DNA of 64,000 nt. Source: Octopus vulgaris. Taxonomy: Eukaryota. Location of the stretch: positions 41,602,001-41,666,000 of the forward strand of contig OX597829.1 in assembly GCA_951406725.2 (NCBI GenBank), read 5' to 3'. The notes beneath the pieces were generated by a model that saw only the letters and a program-made list of their open reading frames with translations, did no database searches and was not told where the DNA came from. Shown piece by piece: positions 8,279 through 63,090 of this stretch (position 1 is its first letter; every line of letters starts with the position of its first letter). Made by a program: the position numbers and the translations under genes.

Positions 8279-8362
8279 ACATACAAACGTTTCAAAGGAC
8301 AATACAAATATGTAAGAAAAAAAATTATAATTAACATTATGTATTGTCATTCTCGTCAGTGT
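8279..8362 (-). ncRNA. Type I hammerhead ribozyme motif with long stem II
   Basis: Minus strand: aca-CTGACGA-gaatgacaataca..tgtattgtccttt-GAAAC-gttt-GTA-tgt. Core intact, 9-bp perfect helix within stem II, GUA cleavage triplet, short 3-bp stem I. Confidence 0.7.
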
Positions 8363-8604
8363 GAAGAATTTAAGGAAAAAACATCCAAAAAAAGTTATTA
8401 CTAAAAATCAAGAAGGAAAACAAATGGAGTAATAGGGAAAATTTAACCAGATAAGTTGTAAAAGGGAAAAATTAAGAGAAACGAAAAAGAGGGACATGTC
8501 AATGTGTATGCAAGTCTATTATGCTGTGATTGATGTAATCAGCTAGTCCATTCCCCACAAATTTCAGGCCTTGTGCCTTTAGTAGAAAGGATTATCATTA
8601 TCTT

Positions 8605-9978
8605 TATGTATATATTTATGTGTGTGTGTTTGTGTCTGTGTTTGTCCCCCACCACCATTGCTTGACAACTGATGTCGGTGTGTTTGCGTCCCCGTAACTT
8701 AGCTGTTTGGTGGAAAAGACTGATAGAATAAGCACTAGGCTTACAGGGAATAAGTTCAGGGGTTGATTTCTTCAATCAAAGAGTGGTGTTCCAGCAAGGC
8801 CTCCATCGAATCACTGAAACAAGTAAAAGAATACAAGAATACCAGAATAACATTCCATACCACTAAACCAAGAAGTTTCTTTGAATATGTACGTTGTATT
8901 TTAAGGCTAAATAGTAATTCTGTTTACGTTTGTGTAACTGAGATATTTTGGTTGGATTATATAGTTATCGGTTGTACACTTCTTTCTGTATTCTGTAATT
9001 GTCACAACATAGAAACATTTCTCATGGCACCAAGCACACAATTTACAGATGCTTACATATTTTGTTTTCCATGAAGTTTTCATGGGTCCAGCTAGTTATT
9101 ATTATCAAGGCAGCAATTTAGCAGAATTGTTAGCATGCAGTGCAAAATGCTTAGGCGTAGGAGTAGCTTGCTTACCAACCACATGGTTCTGGGTTCAGTC
9201 CCACTGCGTAGCACCTTGGGCAAGTGTCTTCTACTATAGGTTCGGGCCGACCAAAGCCTTGTGAGTGGATTTGGTAGATGGAAACTGAAAGAAGCCTGTC
9301 GTATATATGTATATATATATATATATATGTATGTGTGTGTGTGTGTGTATATGTTTGTGTGTCTGTGTTTGTCCCCCCAACATCACTTGACAACTGATGC
9401 TGGCGTGTTTACGTCCCCGTAACTTAATGGTTTGGCAAAAGAGACTGATAGAATAAGCACTGGGCTTACAAAGAATAAGTCCTGGGATTGAATTGCTCGA
9501 CTAAAAGTGGTGCTCCAGCATGGCTGCAGACAAATGATTGAAACTAGTAAAAGAGTAAAAGAATTATCATTAAAGTGCACAGGAGTGGCTGTGTGGTAAG
9601 TAGCCTGCTTACCAACCACATGATTCCGGGTTCAGTCCCACTGCGTGGCACCTTGGGCAAGTGTCTTCTACAATAGCCTCAGGCCAACCAAAGCCTTGTG
9701 AGTGGATTTGATCGAAGAAAACCGAGAGAAGCCCATTGTTTATATGTATGTATATGTATGTGTGTGTATATGTTTGTGTGTCTGTGCTTGTCCCCTCAAC
9801 ATCACTTAACAACCGACACTGGTGTGTTTACGTCCCCGTAACTTAGCAGTTTGGCAAAAGAGACCGATAGAATAAGTACTAGGCTTCCAAAGAATAAGTC
9901 CCGGGGTCGAGTTGCTCGACTAAAGGCGGTGCTCCAGCATGGCCACAGTCAAATGACTGAAACAAGTAAAAGAGTAAA
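8605..9978 (+). mobile_element. Cluster of SINE family A copies (8605-8832 partial; 9153-9560 and 9577-9978 tandem, near full length)
   Basis: tRNA-like head (ggagtggctgtgtggtaag..gggttcagtccc), ccttgggcaag core, internal (TA)n(TG)n tract, common 3' tail. Confidence 0.85.
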
Positions 9979-10183
9979 GTGGTGGGCCAGCAGGACTGGA
10001 CAAAAAGCTTAGCGACATTTCATTCATCTTCACATTCTGAGCTCAAAACCCACTGATATTGACTTTACCTTTCATCCTGTTGGGATCGATAAAATAAGAA
10101 CCAATCAAGTACTGGCCTCGATGAAATCACAGAGGCTACCGCCCATAAAATTTCAGGCTTTGTGCCTATAATAGAAAGCTTTA

Positions 10184-10925
10184 TTGTTGTTGTTGTTGCT
10201 GTTGTTATCACAACCACCACCACCACAACAACAACAACAACAACAACAACCACCACTACTACTACCACCACCACCACCACCACCACCACTACTACTACTA
10301 CTACTACCACTACTACTACTACTACTACTACTGCAGCTGCTGCTGCTGCTACTACTACTACTATTACCATTACTACTACTACAATTACTACTAACACTGT
10401 AACTGCTGCTGCTACTACTACTACTGCTACTATTACTACTAGCACCACCACCATTTCTACAACAATTACAAACACCATAACTACTACTACTACTACTACT
10501 ACTACAATTACTACTACCACTATAACTACTGCTGCTGCTGCTACTACTACTAGCACCACCACCATTTCTACTATGATTACAATCACCATAACTACTACTA
10601 CTACTACTACAATTACTACTACCACCATAACTACTGCTGCTGCTGCTACTACTTCGACTATTACTACTACTACTACAATTACTACTACCACCATAACTAC
10701 TGCTGCTGCTGCTACTACTTCGACTATTACTACTACTACTACAATTACTACTACCACCATAACTACTGCTGCTGCTGCTACTACTTCGACTATTACTACT
10801 ACTACAATTACTACTACCACCATAACTACTGGTGCTGCTGCTTCTACTACTACTACTACTAGCACCACCACCATTTCTACTACAATTACAACCACCATAA
10901 CTACTACTACTACTACTATCATTAT
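10184..10925. repeat. Compound trinucleotide microsatellite (ACT/ACC/GCT) with ~54-bp higher-order units
   Basis: Directly visible. It produces the poly-T/S/V ORFs of the track. Confidence 0.95.
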
Positions 10926-10959
10926 ATGTTGCCATTGCTTTCTTTTATATGAGCTGTTC

Positions 10960-61019: not shown

Positions 61020-62108
61020 AATACTAATTTTTATTCAAAAGATAAAGAATATTATGATCAAACAGCTAGAAATCAGCCATTTTTTTTTTAACGAATTGGT
61101 TATTTTATTTATTTAGAAATCAATTTTATTCATTAAATTCATTTAACACAATATTCTACATGTTTATTTATATTTATTTATATTCTCTTTCTTCTTCCAG
61201 CACTCGACTTCACCTGCTGTTTCATTTATGAATTTTTTTTTTATTTTTTGTAATAATAATAATTTTTTTTTTTTTTACATGTTCATTTATTATTTCTTCA
61301 GTTATACGTATATGCATCGAAGCAGGAACTTCCTGGCAGAGATAAACAGATATACAATGTACCGTTGTTATACACACAGTGTACACTTGATATATACAGT
61401 ATACCTTTGACATATAACAGTGAACCCTTGACATAACTTTTATAATTAAAAAGGAATTTGGAAAATAATGGGAATGAAAACACTAGCCATCCCAACAACT
61501 CCCTTCAATTTATAAGTGATGAGGCTGTTCTCTCCAAATGTTTGTATTCACTCACCAACATGATTAGTCTGTTTGGGTGTTTGTTTATTTTGGGGCAGGG
61601 TTCTTTTTTGCATGGTTTATTTTTATTTTTTTATTTTTTGCTCTTTTAAAGTTAACATGTCTTTAAGTAGTAATAGGTAAAAAAAAAATTTAAGAAAATA
61701 TTTAAAACAAAAAAAGTAACAAAAAAAAAAAATCGTTCGGGGGAATGGAAGTAGTAAATAAGATTGTTATTGTAAAACAAAATAATAATAAAGAAGATTG
61801 AATTGTGTTAAATGATCAGACGAGAAATGATTTTTATAATTATTTTTTCTTTTTTTTTTAATGTCATTATTGCAAAATTTTTGCTTATTTATTATATTGT
61901 TTAATTTCATTTTGTTTTATTTATTCAATCTTATTTTTTATAAATCTTTTTTCATTTTTTTTTCCAAAATTTTATTTGAATTTTTAAAGACATTATTTAT
62001 TGTTTTTTGTCAATTAAGAAGAGCAACTGTCCCTCCCCCATCTCAACTACTCAATTCGTTATATCAAGGGGGCACTATATAACAAAAAAACATGTGACCA
62101 GTTATGTT
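61020..62108 (-). other. Probable 3' UTR of the Rab35-like gene
   Basis: AT-rich stretch without recognisable transposons downstream of the TAG, with several minus-strand AATAAA. The end point is uncertain. Confidence 0.45.
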
Positions 62109-62228
62109 CTAGCAGCACTTTTTCTTTGGCTTTACAGATTTGTTTGTCAAATGTATTCCTTCTTCAGCAACCTTCCTTTGTTGTTCTTTCTTATTTACAA
62201 GAACTTGTTTGGTAATTCCTAAAAACAG
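62109..62228 (-). CDS. RAB35: Last coding exon of a Rab35-like small GTPase (LFLGITKQVLVNKKEQQRKVAEEGIHLTNKSVKPKKKCC*)
   Basis: T-rich acceptor ..tttaaatctgcag|, phase 0. Resembles the Rab35 C-terminus (F..IT..VL..KK...KRKKRCC), with a polybasic tract and CC geranylgeranylation motif. Paralog identity rests on 39 aa only. Confidence 0.75.
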   Translation of the reverse strand: MFLGITKQVLVNKKEQQRKVAEEGIHLTNKSVKPKKKCC

Positions 62229-62352
62229 CTGCAGATTTAAAAAAAAAAAAAAAATATATATATATATATAATAATTATTTGAGGGAGTAATAATCCTAAC
62301 TTATAGGAAAAAATTCAATTTAGAAATACTAAATCAAATTTCACACAATATA

Positions 62353-62615
62353 ATATAATAAAGAAGATTGAATTGTGTTAAATGATCAGACGAGAAATGA
62401 TTTTTATAATTACTTTTTCTTTTTTTTTAATGTCATTGTTGCAAAAGTTTTGCTTATTTATTCATATTTCATCATCATCGTTTTTTTTTAATTTCATTGT
62501 TGCAAAAGTTTTGCTTATTTATTATACTGTTTAATTTTATTTTGTTTTATTTGTTCAATCTTATTTTTTATAAATCTTTTTTTCATTTTTTTTTTCCAAA
62601 ATTTTATTTGAATTT
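62353..62615. repeat. Local direct duplication of ~61782-61985
   Basis: taataataaagaagattgaattgtgttaaatgatcagacgagaaatg... occurs twice, on either side of the Rab exon. Confidence 0.85.
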
Positions 62616-62913
62616 TATATATATATATAATTTAGAATAGAACATAAAAGAGAGAAGTTAATGATGATATATGATATACACATATAAAAACAATGATACA
62701 ACAGTAATCACAAGAGTAATGCTATAGTAAAAATCCTTCCTGCTATAGGTGTTATGCCTTTAGCAGAAAATTGTGTGTGTGTGTGTGTGGGGGGATTGGT
62801 CTAATGCATCAATCTCAATGCTCAGCTGGTACATATTTTATTGATCCTGATGGGATGCAAAGCAAAGACAATCTCACCAGGGATTTCAACTAAAAATAAA
62901 TAATAATAATAAT

Positions 62914-63090
62914 ACTATATAGGACCGAGGTAACTTATCCAGAAGTTATACACAAATAAATAGAAAAGTGCCATATCATGTGAAATTGGTTGAACAATAT
63001 TTCGACATCTAGCATGCCTTCCTCAGGTTCAAAGTCAGTCTACTTCATTTTTTAAGACTATAGAGGACCGAGGTAACTCATCCAGAAGTT
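62914..63090 (-). mobile_element. Retrozyme-like 143-bp unit with 34-bp terminal redundancy
   Basis: Direct repeats 62914-62947 and 63057-63090 (2 mismatches) enclose a hammerhead. Confidence 0.7.
62990..63032 (-). ncRNA. Minimal Type I hammerhead ribozyme, intact core
   Basis: Minus strand: ttgaac-CTGAGGA-a-ggcat gctag atgtc-GAAA-t-ATT-gttcaa. 6-bp stem I, 5-bp stem II, AUAU palindromic stem III. Confidence 0.8.

Follow-up and report, generated by a model that had tools for sequence, protein, structure and literature searches.

Does the core of the hammerhead ribozyme admit in nature more variation than the heptamer CUGANGA describes? This question is raised by a 64-kb stretch of the Octopus vulgaris genome (assembly GCA_951406725.2, contig OX597829.1, positions 41,602,001 to 41,666,000; the whole stretch is hereafter called the window), for which the original prediction, made from the letters alone, listed nine hammerhead-like motifs, three of them with the core pair C3-G8 replaced by another Watson-Crick pair. 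The window is repeat-rich animal DNA (39% GC, 125 tandem-repeat rows) in a genome of 2.8 Gb, and all nine motifs were recovered with the positions, strands and cores given in Table 1. Comparison with related copies elsewhere in the genome leads us to regard it as likely that the nine are type I minimal hammerheads at the 3' ends of repeat families, two of which are Penelope-like elements (PLEs) and the other seven of which are likely to be so, and that the altered cores are fixed across their families, the source elements of which probably remain able to cleave themselves.

Table 1. Hammerhead motifs of the window and the associated PLE. Positions are those of the window; H17 is the residue at core position 17.
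Feature	Position	Strand	H17	Remarks
Hammerhead motif CUGACGA (canonical)	8279..8362	-	8282	long stem II; fragment about 8024-8524
Hammerhead motif UUGAAAA (U3-A8)	28090..28156	-	28093	roughly 180-bp fragment flanked by two TA tracts
5'-truncated PLE with A3-U8 hammerhead	28245..29694	+		starts right after a (TA)n tract
Open reading frame remnant, 347 aa	28255..29298	+		C-terminal part of reverse transcriptase, PF26215 region and GIY-YIG endonuclease (domains of homologs)
Hammerhead motif AUGAAUA (A3-U8)	29590..29624	+	29619	5-bp stem I, 2-bp stem II
Decayed copy CCGAUAA (U4C, G8A) of a CUGAUGA family	30183..30223	-	30187	fragment about 30010-30490
Decayed copy CCGAUGA (U4C, U16.1C) of a CUGAUGA family	31231..31318	+	31314	fragment about 31064-31341
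Hammerhead motif CUGUUGA (A6U)	44698..44735	+	44730	stem III ACGU; fragment about 43792-44860
Hammerhead motif CUGAAGA (canonical)	49240..49327	+	49322	fragment about 49149-49363; inverted partial copy about 49106-49150
Hammerhead motif UUGAUAA (U3-A8)	58513..58555	+	58549	6-bp stem I; fragment about 58435-58722
Hammerhead motif CUGAGGA, family core CUGUGGA (A6U)	62990..63032	-	62996	fragment about 62888-63090

Nine repeat families with a hammerhead layout

For eight of the sites DNA searches of the genome returned 150 to 2,285 first-look candidates per site, and copies of the ninth (44698; families are named here by the first position of their window motif) were gathered by a pattern search. 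The family copies counted below are distinct others, ranked by likeness to the window copy. Every site has homologous copies elsewhere in the genome in which the fold is kept or improved, and the nine motifs represent nine dispersed repeat families, in agreement with the earlier view that several families are involved. At the family level all nine show the type I minimal layout, with stem I closing the core, then stem II, GAAA and UH, and in all nine the majority state of positions 3 and 8 is a Watson-Crick pair; the pair is broken in the 30183 window copy, and U16.1 has been lost in that of 31231. CUGANGA is the core of four families, three have a swapped 3:8 pair and two have U at position 6. 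The 3' segments of the families are self-complementary, as expected of the palindromic stem III that had been proposed, and the self-duplex energy is negative in six of the nine window copies, being weak or absent for 31231, 58513 and 62990.

The motifs might alternatively be chance matches in AT-rich, repeat-rich DNA. The window was compared with 20 local dinucleotide shuffles under five descriptor settings, and the outcome depends on stringency. A strict descriptor, which accepts any Watson-Crick pair at 3:8 and requires 4 bp or more in stem I, matches the window 4 times against a shuffle mean of 0.2 (maximum 2), so that the enrichment over shuffled sequence holds at this stringency; looser descriptors are swamped and the signal fades, with 17 matches against 9.65 (maximum 21) when one core deviation is permitted and 91 against 57.8 (maximum 78) when two are. 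No setting recovered more than six of the nine sites. A further, stricter descriptor gave 4 window matches against 0.81, a count equalled by 2 of 100 shuffles, and with stem I of at least 4 bp it gave 1 against 0.43. Moreover, the Rfam hammerhead models were silent in three scans of regions that contain five of the motifs, and the best 150 of the 268 matches in a scan of the whole window include no hammerhead but microRNA and small nucleolar RNA noise from microsatellites. As the window count by itself is thus insufficient, the analysis turned to the families, and it is the family evidence that validates all nine motifs: the decayed window copies fit the fold less well than the majority states of their families, and motifs stand at a fixed position behind PLE reading frames (see below).

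Chance is opposed also by a sample of 100 evenly spaced 10-kb stretches (1 Mb) searched with positions 3, 6 and 8 free, in which 40 well-formed motifs were found against a mean of about 2 over eight shuffles. Chance is therefore a very improbable explanation and is largely refuted. The sampled motifs comprise C-G pairs with A6 (19 against a shuffle mean of 0.2) and with U6 (10 against 0.4), as well as U-A (6 against 0.5) and G-C pairs (4 against 0.1, all of one family); the twelve mismatched 3:8 pairs with A6 amount together to 16 against about 8. Among the collected loci, which are enriched for the window families, homologs were found for 28 of 30 Watson-Crick A6 matches and for 2 of 16 mismatched ones. 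The suspicion that CUGANGA-based searches under-count the hammerheads of this genome was borne out, in that canonical descriptors overlook about half (21 of 40) of the well-formed motifs in the sample, a point of some consequence for annotation. By rough extrapolation from 40 per Mb, the genome would hold about 100,000 hammerhead motifs. The idea of the window as a hotspot was unsupported: it has 5 descriptor matches where about 2.6 would be expected from the sample.

Four families retain the canonical core. The 49240 family is young, its top copies being 97-99% identical, and has C3-G8 in 28 of 30 copies; the pair is present in 18 of 24 copies of the 8279 family, in 25 of 32 of the 30183 family (17 of 32 with CUGAUGA, stem III palindromic) and in 22 of 26 of the 31231 family (stem III ACAGCUGU). 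The odd cores of the 30183 and 31231 window copies are accordingly private decay of canonical families. Adjoining these two fragments are long inverted repeats (30313-30490 and about 30970-31140) that draw spurious microRNA-hairpin scores and may be 5' inversions of the two insertions.

Families fixed for other core states

The three motifs with an alternative Watson-Crick 3:8 pair (UUGAUAA at 58513, UUGAAAA at 28090 and AUGAAUA at 29590) are all present in the window, and their swaps are not private decay, the swapped states being inherited across the families. U3-A8 occurs in all 33 other copies of the 28090 family and in all 31 of the 58513 family. In the latter a stem I pair covaries (A-U in 18 and G-C in 11 of the 31 copies), the first stem II pair is A-U in 11, G-U in 12 and G-C in 6, and stem III is ACUAGU, with one G>A in the window copy. 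A3-U8 is found in 20 of 21 distinct other copies of the 29590 family, the stem III of which is the palindrome ACCGGU (one C>U in the window copy). Because such a ranking favours copies close to the window sequence, this family was also searched with positions 3, 6 and 8 open; of the 264 matches genome-wide, the first 100 listed include 98 with A3-U8 and none with C3-G8. The 28090 fragment was also considered as an inverted terminal repeat of the neighbouring reading frame, an assignment that we rejected, as a TA tract parts the fragment from that frame and it belongs to another family.

A family found elsewhere in the genome is fixed for the remaining swap: its pattern has 117 matches, and among the first 100 listed G3-C8 occurs in 94 and C3-G8 in none. 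All four Watson-Crick 3:8 pairs are thus present within one genome. This family (e.g. locus L293:4040-4090, minus strand; also L234, L297 and L306) has a 7-bp stem I and a 5-bp stem II, is absent from the window and has no reading frame tied to it; its short repeats often occur as adjacent inverted pairs. L263 (two copies) and L264 represent another U3-A8 family, with UUGAYAA as its core and CCGG as its stem III. In total six swapped families were found, four with U-A, one with A-U and one with G-C.

Two window families fixed for A6U had been overlooked by the original prediction. In the 44698 family U6 is present in 33 of 36 copies. Its open pattern has 15,498 exact matches in the genome, and the family is very abundant, with at least that number of copies. 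The first 100 matches listed have C3 in 99, U6 in 96 and G8 in 97, with position 7 being U in 44, A in 26, C in 19 and G in 11. A further 29 copies, anchored on stem II and not chosen by the open pattern, all have U6, with U15, A7, C4 and G3 at position 7 and A22, U7 and G0 at position 17. In these copies the core and stem I are 93-100% conserved except at N7 and H17, most outer flank positions are conserved at 41-86%, and the subfamilies have diverged to a median pairwise identity of 79%. A hammerhead leaves two positions free, 7 and 17, and as only these vary freely here, the 44698 family obeys hammerhead rules across its diverged subfamilies. U6 poses a sharper puzzle than the 3:8 swaps, as a change expected to impair catalysis is fixed in a family that has been very successful and in other respects keeps to those rules. 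In the 62990 family U6 occurs in 32 of 34 other copies, with stems I and II kept, which makes the canonical-looking window copy the exception in its family.

The swaps had been read as selected variants. Fixation within a family says nothing of selection by itself, since in a young family it reflects no more than what the master copy carried; it is from covariation between related lineages that we infer selection. The PLE family of loci L154 and L291 has the core UUGAAAA (U3-A8; e.g. L291:4709-4750, plus strand) 157-167 nt downstream of its reading frame, and its endonuclease is 49-59% identical to that of the A3-U8 family for most pairs (42% for one). The two families have in common the ends of stem II and the GAAA/stem III/UC segment, and they differ in the 3:8 pair and in a re-paired stem I. 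The C3-G8 tertiary pair is demonstrated by crystallography and engineered swaps, and U3-A8 has been reported from nature; the A3-U8 and G3-C8 families, together with a related lineage flipping U-A to A-U, add phylogenetic support for the pair.

Alternatively, master copies with neutrally damaged cores might have been amplified all the same, and it would then be a coincidence that the states at 3:8 are Watson-Crick. Fixation within a family does reflect one ancestor, and Naiad PLEs are described as spreading without canonical hammerheads (PMC8557442). Coincidence sits poorly with the fact that all six swapped families are Watson-Crick, that the 16 mismatched A6 matches of the 1-Mb sample include no clear mismatch-fixed family, and that the stems covary as well; we therefore consider neutral damage improbable.

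Association with Penelope-like elements

The link to Penelope elements that had been proposed for the motifs was established for the 29590 and 44698 families and is likely for the other seven of the nine. The limits of the element that carries the A3-U8 hammerhead were set from 29 other copies, which have 3' ends at 29688/29694 and a median identity of 94%. The open reading frame (ORF) remnant within it has homologs, the named ones from octopods and oysters, that carry PF00078, PF26215 and PF01541; the window copy of the ORF has no Pfam match itself, and other copies of the family match RVT_1 and GIY-YIG, indicating a single ORF with the reverse transcriptase (RT) followed by a C-terminal GIY-YIG domain. 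The A3-U8 motif lies about 300 nt downstream of the ORF, and an ORF upstream on the same strand is found in 12 of 30 loci of the family. The element has a CX4CxxC linker, its copies often form divergent inverted pairs, and its insertion site is a microsatellite; 5' truncation, inverted 5' copies, microsatellite sites and a CX2-5CxxC linker are given as PLE features in PMC8557442. By its linker motif and TA flank it would fit a Neptune-like PLE. In sequence contigs from 4 of 24 runs over 29300-29760 the family was present in all four, with no difference at positions 3 and 8 among 40 of 64 rows and a varied stem II loop, a weak hint that the pair is held constant, with no bearing on cleavage.

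The 44698 copy is collinear with loci L362 and L373, in which remnants of PLE coding sequence lie some 0.8-1.4 kb upstream, and such sequence precedes the motif in 3 of 30 loci of this family. The profile used in these searches was built from 120 homologs of one PLE group. At L136, a locus of the 31231 family, a 110-codon frame ends 270 nt upstream of the motif, and we take it to resemble the RT tail of a PLE from another clade. The families end sharply on the 3' side and raggedly on the 5' side and are flanked by microsatellites, and it is the fixed 3' and ragged 5' ends that suggest a PLE origin for the seven families lacking a coding link. No head-to-tail tandem array of hammerhead units covers any motif in the window, and a search of the PDB gave nothing relevant.

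Cleavage, binding and known hammerheads

If these families behave like other PLEs, the element RNA would be transcribed through the terminal repeat (pLTR), two hammerheads would pair via the palindromic stem III, aided by the element's own protein, and the cut after position 17 would process the element RNA. Selection in the source lineage would keep a Watson-Crick 3:8 pair whatever its identity, with U at position 6 tolerated, and reverse transcription would scatter 5'-truncated 3' fragments, by which each family core would have been copied hundreds to tens of thousands of times. The nine window copies are solo fragments of this kind, none with a same-family, same-strand partner among the nine, and are likely to be inactive in place.

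Besides the silence of the Rfam models, several observations weigh against PLE hammerheads that still cleave. In the seven unlinked families none of 25-30 loci each has an upstream match to the PLE profile (0 of 30 for 28090), and in eight longer stretches the A3-U8 family was seen neither as a direct tandem nor with two pLTRs. A3-U8 taken by itself is unenriched in the 1-Mb sample (1 against 0.9), and the sister grouping of the L154/L291 and A3-U8 families reaches only SH-aLRT 89, below the starred level, in a quick tree of 10 genome peptides and 22 of the 120 homologs. In a mutational scan of a type III hammerhead, single and double mutants of the CUGA region are all reported to have low activity except for the G:C swap (PMC9901934), so that in the type III context A3-U8, U3-A8 and U6 would be unlikely to work. 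The natural position-6 variant A6C is described as having strongly lowered Mg-dependent activity and a preference for Mn (PMC3088659; PMC7151607, Naghdi et al. 2020); in these accounts it is rare and comes from a phage, whereas U6 is here fixed in a family of at least 15,498 copies. Finally, a lizard PLE is reported to insert in vitro without need of cleavage, with no RNA-sequencing ends noted at the site (PMC11167929).

The last of these reports bears on a different explanation, namely that the fold is kept as a structure bound by the PLE protein, for RNA selection or the start of reverse transcription, with catalysis weak or lost in the variant families. That cleavage in the lizard system is absent without the protein as well as dispensable for insertion (PMC11167929), that minimal hammerheads are weakly active in vitro (PMC4209133), and that U6 characterises the family with the highest count of pattern matches would all agree with such a role. 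The features that have been kept are, however, those of the rules of catalysis, i.e. a Watson-Crick 3:8 pair, a free N7, H17 that is never G (29 copies), A15.1-U16.1 and a palindromic stem III, and a binding site need not follow these rules. A purely binding role thus appears unlikely to us, if less so than neutral damage, and self-cleavage in the source elements is preferred.

A broader proposal, which we put forward tentatively and think somewhat less probable than not, is that in this genome nature has run a saturation experiment on the core of the hammerhead, with PLE families fixed for all four Watson-Crick 3:8 pairs and a family of over 15,000 copies fixed for A6U with N7 and H17 free. 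These cores might owe their activity to dimerisation and the PLE protein, which would relax the requirements seen without protein, in which case about half of some 100,000 hammerheads would be invisible to CUGANGA searches. Lunse, Weinberg and Breaker are said to have described in 2017 many PLE-linked hammerheads with reduced stem III that cleave as dimers, and A3-U8, G3-C8 or U6 cores may be among them. The variant families offer ready natural constructs for asking whether PLE hammerheads must cleave at all.

The phenomenon as such is not new, and the surprise is correspondingly limited. A publication of 2014 (PMC4209133, Cervera and de la Pena) describes the abundance of minimal hammerheads in PLEs and the U3-A8 swap, which a canonical descriptor fails to detect, and presents these ribozymes with a dimer architecture and low activity alone. 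The octopus families resemble them in being type I, with a short stem I, a palindromic stem III and, in the 29590 and 44698 families, a place behind an RT-endonuclease ORF, as well as in occurring mostly as solo truncated copies of many families per genome. The same work reports about 1,300 U3-A8 matches in Schistosoma mansoni that were missed by its first descriptor, and its Figure S3 lists UUGAUAA and UUGAAAA, the heptamers of the two U3-A8 families in the window; the rows of that figure examined contain neither a cephalopod nor any core with A3-U8, G3-C8 or U6, whereas these cores are fixed family states here. Natural U3-A8 covariation was also reported by Perreault et al. in 2011 (PMC3088659). 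The Poseidon PLE hammerhead of Anolis needs the 3:8 pair, is partly rescued by an engineered C3G/G8C change and shows protein-assisted cleavage, but its natural core is C3-G8 (PMC11167929), in contrast to the natural swaps described here. Animal non-LTR retrozymes are likewise type I hammerheads in non-autonomous PLE-related repeats (bioRxiv 10.64898/2026.07.22.740005); they form tandem arrays, whereas the window copies are dispersed single fragments. The literature searched, mostly open-access text without figures, holds no report of natural A3-U8, G3-C8 or U6 families, and their novelty is to that extent not secure.

The window has some further features. A 152-codon frame at 36800-37258 (minus strand) has no Pfam match and resembles the tail of a Tc1/mariner transposase. 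LINE (long interspersed nuclear element)-type sequences are found at 4-3090 (plus strand), with an endonuclease-like frame and an RT frame (RVT_1, E 5e-31) with one stop between them, and at 52876-55215 (minus strand), where a 779-codon RT frame includes a weak PHD-finger match. An uninterrupted 629-codon frame at 39361-41250 (plus strand), which matches Alg9-like mannosyltransferases (PF03901, E 8e-17), has no introns over its span in an otherwise repeat-filled region.

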